Shown here in pieces: positions 4,366 through 40,790 of a stretch of 40,790 nucleotides of DNA (its first letter is position 1; every line of letters begins with the position of its first letter). The stretch lies in the UHGV virus genome UHGV-0115898, one strand, 5' to 3'. The position numbers and the translations under genes were made by a program. The stretch is from a virus. The notes under the pieces are model-generated. The model ran no database searches. It was not told the origin of the DNA and was given only the letters and a program-made list of their open reading frames with translations.

Positions 4366-4689
4366 TCATGATTTACTCTCAACGAACTGGTCAATAGCCA
4401 TGCTAAGTGACATACCTAAAGTTTCGATATGCTGCTGAATATCCTGTAGCGTCTGCGCCTGAGATAACAGGATTTCACGGTTGCATAATTCTTTAACCAG
4501 ATGCTCAAACTTGCTGTAATAACCGATACGGCTTAGTGTTTCTTTCCCTGCATTCTCGCCTTCTTTGATAATTCCTCTTTCACTAAGAATCAGATCGTGT
4601 TTGGTTCCGGTAATAACGTATTTTCCGAGGTCGATGTTTAGCTTCATTGTTTTCATGGTAAATTCCTCAGTCATTACTGATAGCGCCAT
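4366..4689 (-). CDS. Hypothetical protein (107 aa)
   Basis: ORF with ATG at 4687-4689, overlapping the upstream gene end by 23 nt. Confidence 0.5.
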
Positions 4690-4963
4690 AGCGTGAGCGG
4701 TAATTACGCAGGCGCGGGTCGATATATTCAGGGAAGTGGGTATATGTGGCTTTGCGGAATGGTCGGATTGATGTTTCGTTTATTCGGTCTTTTTCCTGTT
4801 TTTCTGCGAGTTGTATATCGCGTCGGCACTTCCGTTCTTCTTTTGTTTCTGGTGGCAGAGCAAGAAACGCGTCGAGATTATTCTTGATATTTTCCAGCAC
4901 CTCCGATACGGAATTGCCGGAACAGCGGCGCGGGTCATCCGCACCATACAGAGGCGCTGGCAT
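4667..4963 (-). CDS. Hypothetical basic protein (98 aa)
   Basis: ATG at 4961-4963 preceded by AGGAG at 6-nt spacing on the minus strand. Confidence 0.5.
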   Translation of the reverse strand: MPAPLYGADDPRRCSGNSVSEVLENIKNNLDAFLALPPETKEERKCRRDIQLAEKQEKDRINETSIRPFRKATYTHFPEYIDPRLRNYRSRYGAISND

Positions 4964-4979: not shown

Positions 4980-5528
4980 TTATTTAGCTAACTTTTTCCA
5001 GATCGCTGAAACGTATTTGGCTTGGTGAATGGCATCATCAAGCGCGTTGTGGCGAGTTCCTTTGAATGGCATATCTCGCTTAGGGTCGAATCCTATTACC
5101 TTCCCAAGTTCGACGATTGTTCTTACGTCGCGGTCATTCCACCACTGCCACGGAACTGGCTGCCCTGTCAGCGAATAACTGTTTCGGAGAATAACGCAGT
5201 CAAATGATGCTCCATTCCCCCAAACCTGAACGAATTTGTGGTTAGCGTTCTTTATGATGAATTCAGATAACCATGAAAGAGCCGTTGAAAGCTCCTGAGT
5301 GTTGCTGGTTAGCGATTTTCTGGCTTCTTCACTCTGTTCCAGCCACCATAAAATCGTTGAAGCGTCAGGACGCGCTCGATATCGCATTGATGATTCAAGC
5401 GAGATATTTACCGAGAACTCTTCTCCTGTTTCTCCGGTATTCGGGTCAAAGAATACCGACCCAATAGAAATAACTGGCGCGTATGGCCCGTTGCCCATTG
5501 TTTCAAGGTCAACCATCAAGTGATTCAT
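4980..5528 (-). CDS. DnaQ-like (DEDDh) 3'-5' exonuclease (182 aa)
   Basis: Exo I motif MVDLETMG near the N-terminus and Exo III motif HNALDDA near the C-terminus; size typical of phage stand-alone proofreading-type exonucleases. Confidence 0.8.
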   Translation of the reverse strand: MNHLMVDLETMGNGPYAPVISIGSVFFDPNTGETGEEFSVNISLESSMRYRARPDASTILWWLEQSEEARKSLTSNTQELSTALSWLSEFIIKNANHKFVQVWGNGASFDCVILRNSYSLTGQPVPWQWWNDRDVRTIVELGKVIGFDPKRDMPFKGTRHNALDDAIHQAKYVSAIWKKLAK

Positions 5529-5536
5529 GTAAGTCC

Positions 5537-6052
5537 TTAAATTGCGTGAATAGCGTGACGAGGGAAGGGGAGAGTTACTGGTGCAAAGGGGATATCGTCG
5601 TCAAAATCCATAGGTGGTTCGCTGTGATTTCCCTGCTGCTGAGGTTGCTGTCTTTGTTGCTGACCATTATTTCGCTGAGGTGAAGACTGTTCATTGCCTC
5701 CTTGCTTGCCACCAAGCATTTGCATGGTTCCACCAACGCCCACGATGACTTCGGTAGTGAACCGATCCTGTCCGCTTTGATCCTGCCATTTTCTTGTCCG
5801 CAATTTGCCTTCAAGATAAACCTCAGATCCTTTTCGCAGATATTCGCTGGCAATTTCTGCCAGTTTCCCGCTCATTACCACGCGGTGCCACTCCGTCTGC
5901 TCCTTTTGCTCTCCAGTTTTCTTATCACGCCATTGTTCTGACGTAGCAACGGTAAGGTTTGCAAATGCCGTTCCTGATGGTGAATATCTGATTTCTGGAT
6001 CATGCCCAAGGCGACCAATAATGATCACCTTATTTACGCCTCTGCTTGCCAT
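5537..6052 (-). CDS. ssb: Single-stranded DNA-binding protein (171 aa) with Gly/Gln-rich linker and DFDDDIPF acidic tip followed by a 15-aa extension
   Basis: OB-fold N-terminus [23 protein letters not shown]..., [10 protein letters not shown] linker, [11 protein letters not shown] motif; ORF continues [15 protein letters not shown] before the stop at 5537-5539. Confidence 0.9.
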
Positions 6053-6760
6053 TTATGCCGCCTGTTTTAGCTCGTTAACTCTGATGTTCATTACCTGAAC
6101 GCATTTAGCCTGCGCCTCCTCGTTTCCAGCCATTAATTGCCAGTCATGCTGATAACGCTCGATGAGTTTTTTCTTGTCAGTTTCTGTCGCTGCATAATCG
6201 CTGAAGTCTTTCAGGATTTGTTCGCAGTCAACCGATGGAGATTTCTGGTTGGTATTTTCTGGTGATGGTTTGTTATCTGATGCTGGGATTGCCCATCCCG
6301 GCAGCGATGGAGGGGACCAGTAAAATCCTGTTCCATCCTTCAGTTTTGCCCTGTGCCATCCCTGCTTTTTATCGAGAGATGTTTGTGCGAAACCTTCCTC
6401 AAGGTTATACAGATACCGACCGATTCCCCATTGAACGGCAGCGCGCTTCATTGCGCCGGAACGACCACCTTTGACTGCTTCTACCTGCGTGTTTTCAGCA
6501 GCATCCCATTTGGTTACCCATTCGGAATCAATCTTTATTGATATGCCGCATTCAACGCCGCCGTTGTTGGGAATATCGCGGTATTCATTGCGCCATCCTG
6601 CTTTGCCGCAAACATCGTCCAGGCGTTTCATGATTGCCCGGTTCGTGACATAAGCCAGCACCATAGCCCACACTTTGCCATCGCGTGTTTTACCGCTTTG
6701 CTGTATTCGCCATTCGATATCTTCAGGGCTGAATGGCTCATCGAATTTGTTCAAATCCAT
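6053..6760 (-). CDS. Single-strand annealing recombinase: Rad52-like N-terminal domain fused to a P22 Erf-like C-terminal tail (235 aa)
   Basis: C-terminus ...AATETDKKKLIERYQHDWQLMAGNEEAQAKCVQVMNIRVNELKQAA matches the P22 Erf C-terminus from memory; N-terminal ~150 aa (EWRIQQ...LAYVTNRAIMKRLDDVCGKAGW) looks Rad52/Sak-like, not Erf-like. Confidence 0.75.
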   Translation of the reverse strand: MDLNKFDEPFSPEDIEWRIQQSGKTRDGKVWAMVLAYVTNRAIMKRLDDVCGKAGWRNEYRDIPNNGGVECGISIKIDSEWVTKWDAAENTQVEAVKGGRSGAMKRAAVQWGIGRYLYNLEEGFAQTSLDKKQGWHRAKLKDGTGFYWSPPSLPGWAIPASDNKPSPENTNQKSPSVDCEQILKDFSDYAATETDKKKLIERYQHDWQLMAGNEEAQAKCVQVMNIRVNELKQAA

Positions 6761-6847
6761 AATTCACCTCAGAATGGACATGGCCCAAGGAAATAACGCT
6801 GATTTAATACTTCAGTCTTTGCCGCATTCAAAAATACGCGAACACCT

Positions 6848-7018
6848 TCACGATCTCCCTTCTGGCGATACATTAACGCCTGCTGCGTGTACATGCGCCT
6901 CTGTAACTTGCTCTCCTTCACTGTGGTTGCAAGTGACATGAATATCTCCTTCGTTACCGATTAATTCTTTCATCTGACGAATGAATTCTTCGTCTGACCA
7001 GTTATCTGTAAAACTCAT
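6848..7018 (-). CDS. Hypothetical small acidic protein (56 aa from ATG at 7018) in the position of kil
   Basis: ATG at 7016-7018 forms an ATGA overlap with the cIII stop; ORF-track start at 7048 is TTG. Confidence 0.4.
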   Translation of the reverse strand: MSFTDNWSDEEFIRQMKELIGNEGDIHVTCNHSEGEQVTEAHVHAAGVNVSPEGRS

Positions 7019-7185
7019 GGACGGCCTTGTTGTTTCAAAATATCCCAAAGCTTTTCGAGCAAACTTTTCATTCTTGGTTGTTTAAAGTCTGCTCCGGTTA
7101 AAATGTTTTTTCGTGAATGCTGTACCGATAAAATCGGGTTGAAAGGGCGAACCGATGCCGCCCCTGCAATAGCGAACTGTTGCAT
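7015..7185 (-). CDS. cIII: CIII-like protease (FtsH) inhibitor, 56 aa
   Basis: Internal ATG at 7183-7185 with AAGGAG at 7-nt spacing; MQQFAIAG...LLEKLWDILKQQG resembles lambda CIII; lies left of N as in lambda. Confidence 0.7.
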   Translation of the reverse strand: MQQFAIAGAASVRPFNPILSVQHSRKNILTGADFKQPRMKSLLEKLWDILKQQGRP

Positions 7186-31110: not shown

Positions 31111-33113
31111 TGAAAGTAACTGCAAACGGTAAGACATTTACCTTTCCTGATGGTACGAGCACCGAAGATATTGGCACCGCCATTGATGAGTATTTTGCTG
31201 GTCAGTCAGCACCAACACAACAAGGTGTTCAGCAATCGCCAGCAGACAACTCACTTGCATCAGGATATGCACAGCTTGCCACTCAGCAGAAGGAAGGACT
31301 AGATCGCTCTGCTGAGCAAGGGGCTGTTTTAGGTGCTGCAATGCGCGATGCCGTTACCGGTGAAAGCCGAATGACACCAGAAATGGAGAGACTGCAAAAT
31401 GTTGGGTCTGCTCCAGAGCTTAATAGCTTAAGCACTGATGCGCTGCGTGCTGGATTGGGGCAGCTATTTGGTTCCGACGCTTCACAGGAGAAAATACTGC
31501 AAAGTATTGGCGGGAAAATCCGGAAGGATGAGAAGGGAAATTCCATAGTCACCCTTCCTTCAGGGGAATATGCACTTAACAAGCCTGGTTTGTCACCGCA
31601 GGATATAACGTCATTCTTGGCAAATGCTCTTGCATTCACTCCAGCAGGTAGAGCTGCGTCTGTTGTAGGTGCAACACTAAAATCAGGCGCTACTGATTTA
31701 GCTTTACAGGGTGCCACTAAGATCGCTGGCGGTGAGAATGTTAATCCAGTTCAAACTGCAATTTCTGCTGGTCTTGGTGGGGTACTGAAGGGTGTAGAAA
31801 ACACCGCAAGCGCAGTGTCTCGTTCTGCTATGGGTAAGATTGCTCCTGAAAAAAAAGCTCAGATTGACTTTGCCAAGCAGAACAACTTGCCACTGATGAC
31901 AACAGATCTTGTGGAACCGGGAACAAATATTGGTAAGCAAGCACGAGCTATGGCTGAGCGAATCCCAATAGCCGGAACAGGTGGGATAAGAAATGCACAG
32001 CAAAAGGCCAGGGAAGATTTAGTTAGAACATTTAGCGATAATGTTGGTGGAATATCTGACGCACAACTTTACCAATCAGCTACTCGTGGTCAGCAGCAAT
32101 TTATTCAGGCTGCTGGCAAGCGGTACGACAGGATCATCAGTTTGATGGGGGATACTCCTGTTGACATCACTGGAACAGTGAAAGCAATTGATGAGCAGAT
32201 TTCCAAGTTAACTCGCCCAGGAGTATCGCAAGATCGCTCAGCTGTTTCTGTCCTTCAACAGTTTAGAAATGACATCACCAGCGGTCCAAATAACCTGCAA
32301 TTAGCTAGAGAAAACCGTACAAACTTACGTAAGCGCTTTATGGCAGCACCTGACGAGGTCGATAGAGATACGCTGGAGAAAGCTGCGCAGTCTGTTTATA
32401 ACGCATACACAACAGACATGAAAAAAGCGGTTGGCGCAAAACTAGGTGCGAAGGAAGCGCAAAACATGTCGCGTGTTGATCGTTCTTGGGCAAAGTTCAA
32501 CGACATGATGAGCAATACACGTGTCCAAAAAGCTATTCAGAGTGGTAAAACAACGCCAGAAGATGTCACTAAACTAGTATTCAGCCAAAGCCCAGCGGAA
32601 AGGGCGCAACTTTATCGATTGCTTGATGATAGTGGGCGTCAAAATGCTAGAGCAGCACTTGTTCAGCGTGCAATGGATAAGGCGACAAGCGATTCAGGAA
32701 AGCTTAGCGTTGAGAAGTTTATTAATGAAATGAAAAGGAATCGGAAGCAGGCTGAGACGTTCTTCAGAGGAGAGCATGGGAAACAGCTTGATGGGATAAT
32801 GAAATATCTTGATTCCACTAGACAGGCAGCTACTGCTGCCGCAAGCCCACTAACAGGGCAAATGGTAGCTGGTCCAGCAGCGCTGATAACAGCTCTTGCG
32901 TCTGTTACAAATCCAATGTTTGCAAAAGTTGCGGCAGTTGGAGCTGGTATCGGTATGGCTGGCAGGGGCTATGAGTCACGCGCGATGAGGAACGCATTAC
33001 TAAAGTTAGCAAACACGCCAAAAGGAAGTACTGCTTATGATAGAGCGATCAGACGGGTATCTGAAACTCTTACACCTCTAATTCAGGCTTCAAGTGAGAA
33101 AGCCCAGCAGTAA
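31107..33113 (+). CDS. Ejection protein, P22 gp16-like (668 aa)
   Basis: Gene order; large Ala/Gln-rich protein; overlapping start with the previous gene. Confidence 0.8.
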
Positions 33114-33121
33114 AAAGTTGG

Positions 33122-33514
33122 TTAGCGGTTGATGGTTGCTTTTTTCGGGTCATACCATCTCGGCCATTCTTTCAGGAATGGGAATGAGTCGGGAGCGTGG
33201 TTCTTTTTGTACGATTTAAGCAGCCTTAACCGCTCTATCGCACACTCATAAACCTCTTGTTGCCCTGTAGTCATCTCGGTCCATGAAAGGTGATCCATTG
33301 ATAAGACAACGTTTTCAGCTTCTTTTATGAGGGCGTTTTTATTTCTCACCGCAGCAGCATGGCTGACAGAGCAATCCTGCCATATTCTTAAAAGCCAAAT
33401 AGCTAAGCAGATAAAAAAAATGGTAGATAGCGATATATACACACCAACCTCTTTAGTTTTTCTAGTTACTTTGTCACGATAGGATATGCGAAATGATAAA
33501 ACTAAATTGCGCAC
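33122..33514 (-). CDS. Hypothetical membrane protein (130 aa, GTG start, one N-terminal TM helix) in AT-rich insertion; positional analogue of P22 sieA
   Basis: TM segment VGVYISLSTIFFICLAIWLLRIW after a basic N-terminus; AT-rich codon usage by eye; start is GTG with weak Shine-Dalgarno. Confidence 0.45.
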   Translation of the reverse strand: MRNLVLSFRISYRDKVTRKTKEVGVYISLSTIFFICLAIWLLRIWQDCSVSHAAAVRNKNALIKEAENVVLSMDHLSWTEMTTGQQEVYECAIERLRLLKSYKKNHAPDSFPFLKEWPRWYDPKKATINR

Positions 33515-33702
33515 ATGATAACTCAGTAATAATTGTTAATGAAAACATGATCACCTATATTGCACAAGGCGAAACAGGAAGCATAATCTGGTTTCATGAG
33601 TGTGATCACGTTTGGGTAAATCAAAGTCAAGAGGAAATACTTGAAATTATCAAAAATAACTATCTAAACGTTGCACACGACTCATCTATCCATTTTTCAT
33701 AA
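33493..33702 (+). CDS. Possible small ORF (69 aa) overlapping both flanking minus-strand genes
   Basis: ATG with AGGA 8 nt upstream; overlaps the 130-aa gene start by 22 nt and the 193-aa gene end by 43 nt, so at most one of the overlapping models is likely to be fully correct. Confidence 0.25.
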   Translation: MIKLNCAHDNSVIIVNENMITYIAQGETGSIIWFHECDHVWVNQSQEEILEIIKNNYLNVAHDSSIHFS

Positions 33703-34241
33703 AATTGTATACCGAGATAGGCAAGAACAGATGGATGTATATCAACAAGCTTTTCGCCAAGATGTTCTGTTGGAGGTGGATAATCTTTGCCTTGGTTTCT
33801 TACGGTTATAGGCATAGTTGTTGCTGGATGAAACTCAACTATCATAGGGTCGCCTTCGTATTTTGCTATTTTCCCTGTTGAATCAATGATTAACTCTTTA
33901 ATATAATGGCTTCTTGCTCCCGGAAATGCCCCAAGAGTAGTATAAGGAGGTTCAAGTTTTGAGATTTCCATAGTGGAATGATGATCAGCATTTCTTGCTT
34001 GGTGAAGGTAAGCAAGTGTTTTGTCTGTTTTTCTAAGCATGAACTTTTGGTTGAAGTGGCTGCTAAATTTTCCACTAACCGGCTTTGTTGCACAGAGCAA
34101 CTTACTGAAAGACTTTTCTATATGCCCAAGACATTCTCGCCAGTGCATTTCAAAATCATCATGGTTTGTAGATGATTTCATCTGCTCTAGGCACTTTTTA
34201 GCTGCGATGATTTCTTTTTTTGCTGGGTTGTAATCGATCAT
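33660..34241 (-). CDS. Hypothetical protein (193 aa) translationally coupled to mnt
   Basis: ATG at 34239-34241 overlaps the mnt stop (ATGA) with AAGGA 6 nt upstream; AT-rich; no recognisable domain. Confidence 0.6.
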   Translation of the reverse strand: MIDYNPAKKEIIAAKKCLEQMKSSTNHDDFEMHWRECLGHIEKSFSKLLCATKPVSGKFSSHFNQKFMLRKTDKTLAYLHQARNADHHSTMEISKLEPPYTTLGAFPGARSHYIKELIIDSTGKIAKYEGDPMIVEFHPATTMPITVRNQGKDYPPPTEHLGEKLVDIHPSVLAYLGIQFYEKWIDESCATFR

Positions 34242-34492
34242 TTTGCATCCTTGCCATACATGTTTTTAAGTGTCTCAAATACCACAGACTTGAACTGTTC
34301 AGCCTGCATCTCGGCTAATCGTTCAGCTTCATTGCGATAACCTTTTACAGGAGATGGTCTCGATAGAGCATCTTGGACGATTTGCAACAATTCTGAGTTC
34401 ATTGATCTACCATTTGACTCTGCTCTGTATTTTAATTTTTCTCTTACTTCCAAAGGCATGCGGAAGTTAAAGTGCGGATCATCTCTAGCCAT
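34238..34492 (-). CDS. mnt: Mnt repressor (ribbon-helix-helix), 84 aa
   Basis: MARDDPHFNFRMPLEVREKLKYRAESNGRSMNSELLQIVQDAL... matches P22 Mnt. Confidence 0.93.
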   Translation of the reverse strand: MARDDPHFNFRMPLEVREKLKYRAESNGRSMNSELLQIVQDALSRPSPVKGYRNEAERLAEMQAEQFKSVVFETLKNMYGKDAK

Positions 34493-34514
34493 GCCATCAC
34501 TCCAAGTTAGTGTA

Positions 34515-34566
34515 TTGACATGATAGAAGCACTCTACTATATTCTCAATAGGTCCACCGTGGACCT
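34515..34566. promoter_or_regulatory. immI control region: Pant (TTGACA - 17 nt - TATATT), Arc operator (atgatagaagcactctactat) and Mnt operator palindrome (AGGTCCACCGTGGACCT)
   Basis: Perfect 17-bp palindrome at 34550-34566; Arc operator-like sequence at 34520-34540; consensus -35 at 34515-34520. Confidence 0.8.
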
Positions 34567-34582
34567 ATATTGTGAGGTGAAC

Positions 34583-34744
34583 ATGAAAGGAATGAGCAAA
34601 ATGCCGCAGTTCAATTTGCGGTGGCCTAAAGAAGTATTGGATTTGGTACGCAAGGTGGCGGAAGAGAATGGTCGGTCTGTTAACTCTGAGATTTATCAGA
34701 GAGTAATGGACAGCTTTAAGAAGGAAGGGCGTATTGGCGCGTAA
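34583..34744 (+). CDS. arc: Arc repressor (53 aa)
   Basis: [53 protein letters not shown] matches P22 Arc with two or three conservative differences. Confidence 0.95.
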
Positions 34745-34812
34745 AGTTGAAGCCCCAACTGCGGGAACAGTCAGGGCTTCTGTTGTCAGTAAATTCGTGG
34801 AGAAAAACCAAC

Positions 34813-35715
34813 ATGAATAGTATAGCAATTTTAGAAGCAGTGAACACCTCTTACGTACCTTTCAATGGTCAGCAGATTATCACCGCCATGACTGCCGGAG
34901 TTGCATATGTTGCGATGAAGCCAATCGTTGAAAACCTTGGAATGAGCTGGTCAACGCAGCAAACAAAACTCATGAAGCAGATTAGCAAATTCAACTGTGT
35001 TCATATGAACATGGTTGCCGCTGATGGTAAGCTTCGTAGGCTACTCTGCCTTCCTTTGAAGAAGTTAAATGGATGGCTGTTCAGCATCAACCCTGAGAAA
35101 GTTCGTGCTGACATCCGCGATAAACTGATTCAGTACCAGGAAGAATGCTTTACTGTGCTGCATGACTACTGGACGAAGGGAAAGGCAGAAAATGCACGTA
35201 AGAAAACATCTGTTGATGACAGGACTCCGCTTCGTGATGCTGTAAATATGCTAGTCAGCAAAAAGCATCTAATGTACCCAGAAGCTTATGCAATGATTCA
35301 TCAGCGTTTCAACGTGGAAAGTATTGAAGAGCTTGATTCATCTCAGATACCGCAAGCAGTAGAGTACATCCACAGGGTAGTGCTTGAAGGCGAGTTCATC
35401 GGCAAACAAGAGAAGAAAACCAACGAGCTTTCTGCAAAAGAAGCAAACAGCCTTGTATGGTTATGGGATTATGCCAACCGCTCACAGGCATTATTCCGCG
35501 AACTGTATCCGGCGCTAAAACAAATTCAATCGAACTATTCCGGCAGATGCTACGACTACGGTCATGAGTTCTCGTATGTTATCGGAATGGCGAGAGACGT
35601 TTTAATAAACCACACGCGAGATGTTGATATTAATGAGCCAGACGGACCAACGAATCTTTCCGCATGGATGAGACTTAAGAATAAAGAATTACCTCCTTCA
35701 GTACATAACTACTGA
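34813..35715 (+). CDS. ant: Antirepressor Ant (300 aa): P22 Ant-like N-terminal domain, different C-terminal domain
   Basis: [40 protein letters not shown]... and [28 protein letters not shown] matches P22 Ant; the C-terminal half does not. Confidence 0.85.
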
Positions 35716-35733
35716 CAGATAACCAACGCAACG

Positions 35734-35758
35734 ACCCAGCTTCGGCTGGGTTTTTTTA
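35734..35758 (+). terminator. Intrinsic terminator after ant
   Basis: CCCAGC-ttcg-GCTGGG hairpin followed by TTTTTTTAT. Confidence 0.8.
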
Positions 35759-35815
35759 TGCCCAAAATTCACCGTAGCCATGCTGCGGCGATTCCTTGTA
35801 TCTGGAGCAAATTAA

Positions 35816-37972
35816 ATGACAGACATTACAGCCAATGTGATCGTATCGATGCCTTCGCAACTCTTCACTATGGCTCGTTCTTTTAAAGCCGTAGCCAATG
35901 GCAAAATTTATATCGGTAAAATTGACACTGACCCGGTAAACCCTGAAAACCAGATTCAGGTTTATGTGGAGAACGAAGACGGCTCTCACGTTCCTGTTTC
36001 GCAACCAATCATCATTAACGCTGCTGGTTACCCGGTATATAACGGACAGATTGCCAAGTTCGTAACTGTGCAAGGCCATTCTATGGCTGTTTATGATGCA
36101 TACGGTGTGCAGCAGTTCTATTTTCCTAATGTGCTGAAGTATGACCCGGATCAGTTTTCTGCAGAATGGCTTGCCAAGATGTCTGCGCCTGATTCTTATG
36201 CATTATTTGGTACATTCTCATCAATAGCAGATCTACGAGCATTTACTGCATACTCATCAGTTAAGGAAAATGGAAGAGTCTATGTTGATTCTTATCACCT
36301 TGGAGCTGGTTATGGCGGAGGATATTTCCGCTGGAATTCAACTAGCACTGATACTGATGACGGTGGCTATACCATTAACCCAACTGGCAATACTGGAACA
36401 GGACGCTGGAAGCGAGAGATATCCTCTGCGTATGTCGCAAGGACGGTGAGTCCGTTGGAGTTTGGGGCAAAAATTAACGATAGTACTTTCGACTGCGCGC
36501 CAGCTATCAATGCGGCTATTTTATATTTGAATCCTTATCTTGATTCCTCATATGATTCTCATCAGGGTGGAGATATTGTGTTGCCAGCAGGGCAGTTTTA
36601 TATTAATGACACTATATACGGCTCTCCCAATGTCAGGGTGCTGGGAACTGGCGGCACTCCAGGGTTCAGATATTCTAGGTCTGGGTGTTCTGTTATTGTC
36701 GCAATGCCCACAATGGATCTCATGAAAATTATGTATGATACCGCCCCGTGGTTGACAGACGGCACATCCAGATACACTAATACAAACGAGATGGTTTACG
36801 GCAGAACGGAAAGTCAGGGATACTATGGGACCTACATTGAGAACATAGTTTTTGTTGGAAATGCAGATCAACAGTGCGGAGTACGTATCTGGCGAGTTCC
36901 ATGCTCCACTCTCAAAGGTGTTGCAGTCTACTCCTGTAAAGTAAGTTTCTGGGTAAATGGTTCGTGGGATGTGATGCTTGATAATTGCTTCTCATATGGC
37001 GCGAAGTACGCCACAATTTTGCCTTATCAAATTACATCGCTTCGCATAGTAGGCGGCTATTATACAGGAAATACTGCACAACTTTATTCTATGGGGACTG
37101 AACAGTGGTTTCATCGAGCGATAGATGAAACTAACAAGCCAAACATTGCTTATGTAACTACTTTCATGTATGCATATAACAGTTTTGATATAAATCTGTA
37201 TGGCGTAACAATAGAAGGGTACAACAGAGAGTTTGCTCTTTTTTATTGCGGCAATGTTAATATGTTTGGTGGGTATACAGAATGGATTGGAGTACCTGCA
37301 AGCGAGACAGGGCATCGTGTTTTTGTGCATGGTGTTGCCTCAGAGTTTTATTCAACAGGGACATACTTTAATCACGACATTAAAGATCTGGCGGTGCAGT
37401 CAGGGAATGTTTTTGACACTACTTCAGGAGAATACCTCCCATCTGAAAGATCACGAGTGATAATTGAAAATCCAAGAGTGGTAACAAAATTCCAGAATCT
37501 TACTAAAGATTTAGGATATGGCTCCTACAATATTGTCATAAAAAACCAACACCCTATCACAGATAGCTTATCGACTACACTTTCAGCGCAGAGGCTTTTT
37601 ACAGTTCAATTTGTTGGATTGCTAGACCAGTATACAATGCGAACTCCTGCTGTAACTGCAAATGGTACAGTGAGCTTTAGTATCCAGATTGGAAATATTG
37701 CAGATGGAGGTGAGTATAGCGTTAGGCTTTTGATGAGAAACACCGCATCCACTGTACAGCAGGATTTAAGATTTACAGTGTTGGTAGGAACAACAACAAC
37801 TGTTACTGGCTACCAGGGACGCTCGAAGGCTGGGACCACATTAATACCAGCACCCACAGCAACATTCACTGGTAGCACATTAACTCTTACTTTCACAGGT
37901 AATTCAGGTTATTATTCATTCTTCAGAATGAAGTGCGTGCCTGTAGAAGATCAACATATTTATACCTATTGA
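35816..37972 (+). CDS. Tailspike protein: conserved P22-family N-terminal head-binding domain, distinct beta-helix receptor-binding domain (718 aa)
   Basis: First ~115 aa ([11 protein letters not shown]...[34 protein letters not shown]...[13 protein letters not shown]...NVLKYDPDQ) match the P22/Sf6/HK620 tailspike N-termini; rest is Gly/Tyr/Thr-rich. Confidence 0.9.
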
Positions 37973-37993
37973 TGGATTTTAGGCCGGGCAACC

Positions 37994-38027
37994 CCTGCCA
38001 ATAGACTTTATTGGCAGGATTTTTTAT
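37994..38027 (+). terminator. Intrinsic terminator after tailspike, overlapping the 3' end of convergent gtrC
   Basis: CCTGCCAATA-gactt-TATTGGCAGG hairpin followed by ATTTTTTAT. Confidence 0.75.
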
Positions 38028-39462
38028 CAAAATCAACAATCAAAATGCTATCCTTGATATAGGAATTTAGCCATTGCCCCTGAAAGGATAGGTTACCTTC
38101 ACATTTATGTGAAATGTAATTTTTAGCCTTGTTTGCTGGCATGTATGTATTCTTTATCCCATTAAATGACATGTACGCACTTCCCCAATACCAGTTCCAG
38201 AAGTAATCTGTGACTGAATAGTTTATCAAAGGAAAGTTTAATGCTGCATTTTTTACAGCTTCGGATCTTGGTGCTGTGCCGGTAAACACAATGCTAACAT
38301 TATCACTACCAGCGTCGCGAATGGATTGCATAATTTCAGAAAGAACTACTTTATTTATCCTTTCCTGAGCCTTCAAAGCATTTCCGTATACATACATTAA
38401 AATCATAGAATACAATACGGGTATTAATGTAATTGATGTTACGTATCTATGTTCTTTAAAGCAATAATATAGCAATGTACTCATGAGGACATAAAAAACT
38501 CCAACCGACATGTATAAGTGAACTCCTCCCAATGGGTTGGCGAGAACCAGCAATGCCCCCATAGTCATTGGCATAGCGATTGCTGTTGCGAGTATCGCTC
38601 CAGTTATAACGTTAAATACTTTCCAGTTTAGGCCTTTACATTTAACGTATTTGTAACTCAGAAACGCCGTCATAATAATGCAAGCTAAAGCTGACAGGAG
38701 TAATAATTCACCACCGACAACCCTGTAAAAATTTGTAGAAGCAAAATCGTAATACTTTAAGCTGTTATTCTTTAGTGCCCCTAATATATCATTTGATATT
38801 CTTGGGTGATTAGATGAATAATGCCCGCTAAAAGTTATGGGTAATATGAATTTCACGTATATCATACCACCTACTAAAACCTGCATTATACGTAATGCAA
38901 CCCTTTTAAGTATTAACTGCGGGTCAGTAAATCTGGCCATGTTAACTATTACTTCACATATTAATAAAATCGCAACGACATTAATGACTGCCTGATAAGT
39001 GCCAAGCACTATCACTACAAATGCGGTGCCTATTATTAATTCATGAACCAGTCTTTTGCACTTAATTGCAAAGAGAGCAAATGCAGATGCAATGGAGAAA
39101 CTGAAAGTTAAAACATCAAACCGATAAGAGAACATTGATATAATAGCTGGATTCGCCATGAATGCCAGAGGTATAATAAAGCTCCATTTTCCCCCATCAA
39201 GAAACCTCTTTCTGTAACATGCAAAAGATATTGCAAGCAGCACAGAAGCAAGAATGATTGGTAGAGGTGCAAGATCGACGATTCTGGAGCTAAGATTGAG
39301 AACTGACATTACTATATCAGCTACAGGCCTCCCGTCCACACCCCATTTAGTATAACCAACAGTCGTTCGCCCAATATCATCAACATAAAATTGGTTTGCT
39401 AGGATAATTGGCAATATAAATATAAAAATAACATACGAGTAACGTTTTGAGTTGTTAATCAT
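38008..39462 (-). CDS. gtrC: GtrC-type serotype-specific O-antigen glucosyltransferase, polytopic membrane protein (484 aa)
   Basis: Multiple hydrophobic TM segments, AT-rich, located 3' of gtrA/gtrB with overlapping start. Confidence 0.8.
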
Positions 39463-40381
39463 TTTTATTCTTACCCTTTAAAATATATCTTGGACGCTGT
39501 TTAACCTCGATATAAATCCTTCCGATGTATTCACCAAGTACCCCTATACCGATCAACTGAATCCCGCCCAAGAAAAGTATCGATACCAGCAAAGATGGAT
39601 AACCACGAACAGCATTCCCAAATACAAGCGTGTCGATAATCATCCACGTTCCGTACAGGAATGCCACTCCGGCAACAAACAGGCCGATATAGGTCCACAT
39701 ACGCAGGGGTAATGTTGAGAAACTTGTGATTCCTTCAAGTGCTAAATTCCACAACTTCCACCCATTGAATTTTGAATCACCTGCAACCCGTTCTGCGCGT
39801 GCGTATTCCACGACATCTGTCTTTCCGCCAACCCAACTAAGAATGCCTTTCATGAAAAGATTGCGTTCTGGCAGGAGCTTAATATTCTCCACTACCTCGC
39901 GAGACATTAGCCTGAAATCTCCAACATTTTCCTCGATCTGCGGGTTGCTGATTTTGTTATGCAGCTTATAGAACCACTCGGCGGTTTTCCTCTTCAGTCT
40001 GCCATCAGTTGAGCGGTCAGATCGTTTAGCAAGCACCATGTCAGCACCTGCTAGCCATTTCTCAATCAGGTGAGGAATAACTTCTATTGGATCCTGTAAG
40101 TCAACGTCAATCGGGATAATCGCCTCACCAGTTGCGTGATCAAGACCAGCGAACAGCGCAGGTTCTTTACCAAAGTTTCTGGTGAATGACAAAGGAACAA
40201 CAAGCGGATCGGAAACAGCCAGCGCGTTTATAATTGATTCAGTAGCGTCTATGCTACCGTCATTAATAAAGACTATCTCGATTTCATGTTGCTGAAGCCC
40301 TTCAAATTCCCGAGCCGTTTTATAAAAAATCGGTATTGTGTCTTCTTCGTTGAAGACGGGAACGACCAGAGAAATTTTCAT
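39455..40381 (-). CDS. gtrB: GtrB bactoprenol glucosyltransferase (GT2 family), 308 aa
   Basis: GT2 motifs ([22 protein letters not shown]) with two C-terminal TM helices. Confidence 0.92.
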
Positions 40382-40740
40382 CTCGCATCCCTAAATACAA
40401 TTAACTTTGAATAGACGAAACCGCACACCAGGCTGATGGCGGAGAAAGTGATAAGGGTGACCATTGGGGGAAGTGCACATCTATCAGCAGCCCACCCGAC
40501 GACAACACTCAGGGTTCCCATGAATCCCACGTATAACATGTAGCGCATCGTTGTAGTCGATGCTTTGAATGTGAATCTTGCATTCGCGAAGAAGCTAAAG
40601 CTCACAGCTACTATGAAACCTGCGAAGTTTGCCAGAGCCTGATTGGTATGCGCTGCATAGATACATACACCAAAAACCACCCAGTGTATAAGTGTGTTTA
40701 GCACACCAATCGAGGTGTACTTTGCAAATAGCTTTAACAT
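40378..40740 (-). CDS. gtrA: GtrA flippase-like small membrane protein (120 aa)
   Basis: Four predicted TM segments, 120 aa, immediately upstream of and overlapping gtrB. Confidence 0.88.
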
Positions 40741-40790
40741 TTCTTCTATCAGCTAATAATCAAAGGCATGAAGTCTATCATCCAAGTCTC

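Follow-up and report, generated by a model that had tools for sequence, protein, structure and literature searches.

A probable single-strand annealing protein with a Rad52/Sak-type core and an Erf-type C-terminal tail in the recombination module of a P22-like phage

How a protein that ends like P22 Erf comes to begin like another kind of annealing protein, and what its tail may do there, are the questions raised by a gene on the minus strand of the virus genome UHGV-0115898, whose whole stretch of 40,790 nucleotides was analysed and is called the window below. The gene occupies positions 6053-6760 including the stop codon and encodes 235 aa according to the list of open reading frames. Read directly from the sequence, its ATG is at 6760 and its TAA at 6055-6053, and a Shine-Dalgarno-like GAGGTG is found on the same strand at 6765-6770, 5 nt upstream of the ATG. 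The stop codon directly abuts the ATG of the ssb gene at 6052, so that the junction reads TAAATG. PHROG 1097 ('Erf-like ssDNA annealing protein') matched the product from end to end (E 1.2e-129; aa 1-235, profile positions 2-251 of 251). The gene product is very probably a single-strand annealing protein (SSAP) from the recombination module of P22-like/lambdoid E. coli phages, built of a Rad52/Sak-type core and an exchangeable Erf-type tail. The structural genes of the window, with portal, terminase, coat and scaffolding genes among the matches, are about 96% identical to those of the E. coli phages APC_JM3.2, IME10 and HZ41, which makes the window a lambdoid phage or prophage of the P22-like kind. 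The G+C content of positions 32001-40790 is 0.39-0.43, lower than the 0.47-0.52 found elsewhere in the window.

The N-terminal annealing domain (aa 1-160; positions 6281-6760, minus strand) was assigned to the Rad52/Sak type by Pfam, BLASTP, AF2 and Foldseek. The Pfam model Rad52_Rad22 (PF04098), whose curated gathering cut-off is 20.3 bits, matched aa 4-136 with 91.9 bits (E 5e-26; profile positions 7-153 of 153), and BLASTP aligned aa 6-159 with Sak (ORF252) of Lactococcus phage ul36 at 59% identity (155 aa; E 3e-67). The ERF model (PF04404) was found neither in the whole protein at E<=1 nor in the separately searched halves at E<=10, and P22 Erf scored 157 bits against ERF in the same Pfam search. 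The preliminary description had held that the N-terminal ~150 residues are not an Erf annealing domain and resemble Rad52/Sak proteins, and had suggested searching the two halves separately; this search bore it out, with Rad52_Rad22 in the N-terminal half and ERF in neither. The core of the SSAP is outside the ERF family PF04404, and the 'Erf-like' label in PHROG and GenBank owes to the tail only. Annotation as 'Erf' or 'Erf-like' is misleading, since the core is of the Rad52/Sak type and the resemblance to Erf is confined to the tail.

The structure predictions, which are of monomers and cover the full-length SSAP and the tail alone, point the same way. The full-length AF2 model (mean pLDDT 83; MSA of 79 homologues) has a predicted beta-beta-alpha-beta-beta-beta-alpha topology in aa 1-160 with pLDDT of about 85-95. 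When the full model was compared with the PDB by Foldseek, each of the top 16 matches was to human RAD52 or to Mgm101 of yeast (probability 0.97-1.00; E 2e-4 to 9e-3); a full-length family profile gave no significant match to PDB sequences. From its homology with ul36 Sak and RAD52, the core is predicted to form ssDNA-binding rings that anneal complementary strands and, in phage recombination, to work together with Abc2-modified RecBCD, the SSB of the module and an optional 3'-5' exonuclease. The ul36 Sak has the same Pfam domain, and ssb lies directly downstream in both phages, but its C-terminal region is unrelated to the tail of the SSAP and the alignment stops at aa 159. At the nucleotide level, positions 6404-6551 (minus strand; codons ~70-119) are 75% identical to ul36 sak over 148 nt, an unusually high conservation of this core for phages of Enterobacterales and Firmicutes.

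Behind the core lies a low-complexity flexible linker (aa 161-178; positions 6227-6280, minus strand), with AF2 pLDDT below 50 at aa 162-175, and then a C-terminal three-helix domain (aa 179-235; positions 6056-6226, minus strand), which BLASTP, nucleotide identity and AF2 identify as a homologue of the P22 Erf C-terminus. BLASTP aligned P22 Erf aa 134-205 with SSAP aa 157-235 (79 aa) at 66% identity (E 4e-32), and the helical part of the tail (58 aa) is 75% identical to P22 Erf. The match that had been recognised earlier between the last ~60 residues and the P22 Erf C-terminus is thus real, and it extends to the DNA, where the last 171 nt (aa 180-235) are 80% identical; the lengths given beforehand for the two parts were accurate, and the similarities of core and tail alike far exceed what chance would give. 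The ERF domain of P22 Erf (aa 5-146) overlaps just the low-complexity start of this match, and the conserved helical part (P22 Erf aa ~149-205) falls outside it. The tail helices were placed at aa 179-192, 196-209 and 214-234 with pLDDT 82-95, in the full-length and the tail-only models. Structure prediction, another check proposed beforehand, agreed with a Rad52-type core, a disordered linker and a three-helix tail, and the tail is predicted to be a separate small folded domain after a flexible hinge. A two-domain organisation of Erf is credited to Poteete et al. 1983 in two phage genome papers (PMC2629481; PMC8022706). P22 Erf has the C-terminal domain, the two-domain layout with a flexible hinge and the genomic position in common with the SSAP, whereas its core is of the ERF family and that of the SSAP is Rad52_Rad22.

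The 78-aa tail matched no model of Pfam or NCBIfam, and NCBIfam gave no model for the SSAP or P22 Erf either; the tail is in effect a well-defined 57-residue domain without a database model. In an alignment of eight diverse tails, L, W, Q, R and E-L positions were invariant. As a whole, the tails vary fast (23-95% identity), compared with 69-99% for the cores. A single 62-aa tail sequence, which is a weak query, returned 15 short fragments, and 13 proteins at E<=1e-3 in the representative database.

The distribution of this tail suggests that it has had a history apart from that of the cores. Among ten reference proteins, it was present on three kinds of core, i.e., on Rad52_Rad22 cores in the window, Sf6 and Yersinia phage 06.16-1, on ERF cores of the P22 subtype in P22, HK97 and S9-5, and on ERF cores of a second subtype in Klebsiella RCIP0034, Morganella IME1369_01 and Erwinia Ehr49; no similarity between the Rad52-type and ERF-type cores was found by BLASTP. 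Similar cores carry dissimilar tails: P22 and HK97 are 92% identical in the core and 40% in the tail, the window and Yersinia proteins 73% and 34%, and the window protein and the E. coli prophage protein P0046 (locus L090) 99-100% and 36%. Conversely, the Rad52-type P0046 and the ERF-type HK97 protein have tails that are 100% identical on cores of different families, and the tail of the Rad52-type Salmonella protein P0032 (locus L091) is 93% identical to that of the ERF-type P22 protein, again with cores of different families. When 78 Rad52-type homologues were compared, their nearest tail was of the P22, HK97/S9-5, Klebsiella/Erwinia, Yersinia or Morganella type, and the reference tails of these five types, Yersinia excepted, are all on ERF cores. 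At least five lineages of the tail each occur on cores of both the Rad52 and the ERF type. The tail lineage tends to go with the host genus, not with the type of core.

The limits of DNA homology locate the joints. Between the window and P22, 80% nucleotide identity is confined to those last 171 nt; it ends at the stop codon and returns at abc2. The 95.7% identity of the window and L090 sets in upstream of the gene and lasts until codon ~167, within the linker; no homology follows until abc2 (98%). L090 and HK97 become homologous at codon ~164 and stay so for 1,052 bp, through tail B, a gp40-type SSB-like gene and abc2, and the homology of L091 to P22, which sets in at codon 181, takes in the tail, abc1 and abc2 and is 1,237 bp long. 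As these boundaries fall at codons ~164, ~167 and 181, the joints lie either within the linker or where the tail begins. Judged from these alignments, the tail is an independently exchangeable module with the linker or the tail start as a recurrent joint, and in the recent exchanges it appears to have moved with the downstream genes, not with the core. The preliminary description had spoken of domain shuffling between recombinase superfamilies; the shuffling is supported by the incongruence of core and tail and by the DNA joints, but not the level at which it was placed, because Sak, Erf and Redβ are now seen as families within one Rad52-like superfamily (PMC2896510).

All genes of the module are on the minus strand, in the order small ORF, SSAP, SSB, 3'-5' exonuclease and Abc2. 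The phage SSB gene (positions 5537-6052; Pfam SSB, E 3.7e-38) is followed by the gene of a DnaQ-like (Rv2179c-like) 3'-5' exonuclease (4980-5528; Pfam Rv2179c-like, E 2.4e-72), by that of the anti-RecBCD protein Abc2 (4667-4963; Pfam Anti-RecBCD_p2, E 6e-44) and by a DUF5405 protein gene recognised by its family match (4366-4689). The content of the module was counted in the 80 closest tail-bearing IMG/VR loci, collected with a single tail sequence as query, and all 80 tails, which are near-identical, sit on the same Rad52-type core at identities of at least 95%. SSB is directly downstream of the SSAP gene in 79 of the 80, Abc2 is present in 78, and the Rv2179c-like exonuclease, found in 24, is an optional member. 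The earlier view that the adjacent SSB and exonuclease complete a recombination module therefore holds for SSB, and needs amendment in that the exonuclease is DnaQ-type and optional and that Abc2 also belongs to the module. The exonuclease is of the DnaQ 3'-5' type, not a 5'-3' resection nuclease of the λ Exo/RecE type, and DnaQ-like nucleases within lambdoid Rec modules are reported in a 2025 survey (PMC12315714). A gene for an HNH endonuclease of the Sf6 type occurs in 15 of the 80 loci and a divergent one (47% identical) in three more; the downstream cassette of the window is the exonuclease-plus, HNH-minus variant.

Upstream of the SSAP gene, a small ORF of 56 aa (positions 6769-6939, minus strand) belongs to phrog_1723 (E 4.5e-34), a family that includes Sf6p29, annotated as similar to the HK97 gene 42 protein, and it is found in this place in most related loci. 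Despite having the position of P22 arf, it showed no BLASTP similarity to P22 Arf. Thus P22 has arf upstream and abc1 downstream of erf, whereas the window has the phrog_1723 ORF upstream and ssb and the exonuclease gene downstream of the SSAP gene. Positions 6769-7048 (minus strand) contain two overlapping small ORFs (56 aa, phrog_1723; 66 aa, phrog_2123) in the arf position, both unrelated to arf, and we saw no evidence supporting the 'recombinase' label that PHROG gives to these two. The Abc2 allele of the window is 97% identical to that of L090 and just 71% to P22 Abc2, and most close relatives of the SSAP have a P22-like Abc2 allele (~91% to P22, ~75% to the window); this difference marks a further mosaic joint inside the module.

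As to its role, the tail would most likely sit at the edge of the annealing ring and serve as an adaptor that ties the ring to a partner. Our tentative candidate for this partner is SSB, bound at its acidic C-terminal tip, be it the host SSB or that of the phage, whose gene is just downstream; it is favoured because of the analogy to the C-terminal domain (CTD) of Redβ, the interaction of a staphylococcal Sak with SSB and the SSB-like genes downstream. The Redβ CTD (PDB 6M9K) is, like the tail, a three-helix bundle tethered behind an annealing core of the Rad52 superfamily, and it binds λ Exo and the C-terminal peptide of SSB (PMC6393309). No sequence relationship between the two was detected (hhalign probability 0.2%), and comparison of the tail fold gave generic helical-bundle matches only, with the Redβ CTD not among the matches listed; the Redβ CTD is plausible as a functional analogue of the Erf-type tail. 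The staphylococcal Sak and the SSB of the same system have been found to interact (PMC5499656), and in 7 of the 11 diverse contexts compared, the gene with the tail has an SSB-like gene with a DDDIPF-type tip directly downstream. Gp77, an Erf-like protein, has a three-helix C-terminal domain peripheral to its ring (PMC13017515), and the position of the tail on a flexible tether fits such an arrangement. On the other hand, P22, Klebsiella RCIP0034 and Erwinia Ehr49 have the tail without an adjacent phage SSB, and the SSB of the window buries its DDDIPF tip beneath a 15-residue extension. A linkage of tail lineage to the type of downstream SSB was tested and is not strict, tail B being found with gp40-type and E. 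coli-type SSB and gp40-type SSB with tails B and D. More broadly, the Erf-type tail is possibly a portable partner-binding cassette, most plausibly a binder of the SSB tip, that enterobacterial phages swap among unrelated-looking cores, often together with a downstream SSB-like gene; if so, core and adaptor evolve as separate units. Naming the partner would account for the need of Erf for its C-terminal domain and could help to make annealing proteins portable for recombineering, where the compatibility of the annealing protein with SSB is plausibly a limiting factor.

An alternative partner is RecBCD modified by Abc2. Abc2 has been described as hijacking RecBCD to make DNA ends ready for recombination (PMC5928155). 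In this reading, Abc2, which binds RecC, would have RecBCD resect the ends and pass ssDNA to the SSAP via the tail. Abc2 does lie downstream in the 78 of 80 close loci mentioned above and also in P22, HK97, Sf6, L090 and L091, but no Abc2 was detectable within 4 kb in the tail-bearing loci of Klebsiella RCIP0034, Morganella, Yersinia and Erwinia, and S9-5 shows just a weak partial match. Moreover, HK620 combines a 94%-identical Abc2 with Sak4, another type of recombinase, and the Abc2 proteins of the window and L090 are 97% identical, yet their tails only 36%. We regard this coupling as unlikely, and Abc2/RecBCD as a less likely partner than SSB. The proposal that the tail is always accompanied by Abc2 was considered separately and rejected on account of the four tail-bearing loci without detectable Abc2.

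The tail may also have no external partner and act in cis, either on how rings assemble or stack or by covering the groove that binds DNA. Such a role would suit a small, flexibly tethered helical bundle at the edge of the ring, as in Gp77 (PMC13017515), and also the quick divergence of tails behind conserved cores. However, the same tail is carried by Rad52-type and ERF-type cores that have no BLASTP similarity to each other, which argues against a specific intramolecular interface, and the L, W, Q, R and E-L positions are conserved in all tail lineages; we give a role in cis a low probability. Recruitment of a host factor other than SSB, such as RecA or a component of the replisome, is quite improbable. 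It would agree with the reported interaction of a lactococcal Sak-type recombinase with RecA and SSB (PMC5499656) and with the phages that have the tail without an adjacent phage-encoded partner, but the tail is not related to the C-terminal region of ul36 Sak, which in the tail columns is 4-23% identical to the ten-protein set.

The SSAP with its putative SSB-binding tail is by no means rare. Proteins of N7, mEpX2, IME10 (annotated 'ORF252') and HK75 are 98-99% identical to it over their full length and those of ES18, epsilon34, L, ST160 and SE1 91-94%, and Sf6 gp28 is the same 235-aa protein. Sf6 gp28, ES18 gp49, epsilon34 gp36, L Erf and the proteins of mEpX2, HK75, IME10 and N7 can all be considered the same protein (91-99% over 235 aa), and the 'Erf' of the Sf6/ES18/epsilon34/L type has the same position in the module, upstream of ssb and abc2, with allelic differences only. 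A search of the protein database (E<=1e-3) found 5,573 homologues. Near-identical SSAP sequences form clusters of 1,495 and 3,531, and the architecture is kept over the full length at identities as low as 56%, in Cronobacter, Citrobacter, Klebsiella, Hafnia, Pantoea, Erwinia and Providencia. It is very improbable that the SSAP is no chimera but a single family from end to end with ordinary divergence from P22, as the cover of aa 1-235 by PHROG 1097 and the architecture kept throughout the Enterobacterales might suggest, and this reading is refuted by the tail-only BLASTP match to P22 Erf, with the cores in different Pfam families, by the incongruent identities of core and tail, and by the sharp limits of DNA homology in the linker, at the tail start and at the stop codon. 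The preliminary description had named alignment of the whole protein with one known family as evidence against a chimera; PHROG 1097 formally provides such an alignment, and the chimerism stands nevertheless, because PHROG 1097 is a family of the same two-part architecture.

The chimera is real but already known, in a common and abundant protein. The epsilon34 genome paper of 2008 describes the Erf domain swap and cites earlier discussions (PMC2629481), and the phage L genome paper of 2020 reports the same swap and explains it by one of the domains having been exchanged horizontally (PMC8022706). In sorting annealing proteins, the 2025 survey of lambdoid Rec modules goes by the annealing domain, and it regards shuffling of partner-interaction domains as likely but 'beyond the scope' (PMC12315714). 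The locus has little value as a discovery, since the protein is common and its chimerism with P22 Erf has been published.

Some minor observations concern the SSB genes of these modules. The SSB of the window (3' end at 5537-5584, minus strand) has the DDDIPF tip followed by 15 extra residues, an extension common to about 60 of 82 related loci. In loci with an HNH endonuclease gene of the Sf6 gp26 type, the SSB ends with ...DSDIPF followed by the stop codon, and the HNH ORF ends in the same 14 residues as the SSB extension; the HNH gene therefore lies inside the 3' end of ssb, in the same reading frame. HK97 gp40 (locus L004, 4186-4575) is SSB-like (phrog_44, E 2.7e-25) and ends with ...VYDDSNPILI, and a 94%-identical prophage homologue (L090, 4678-5061) has the SSB-type tip ...EYDDSIPF. 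The C-terminus of HK97 gp40 may have been altered.
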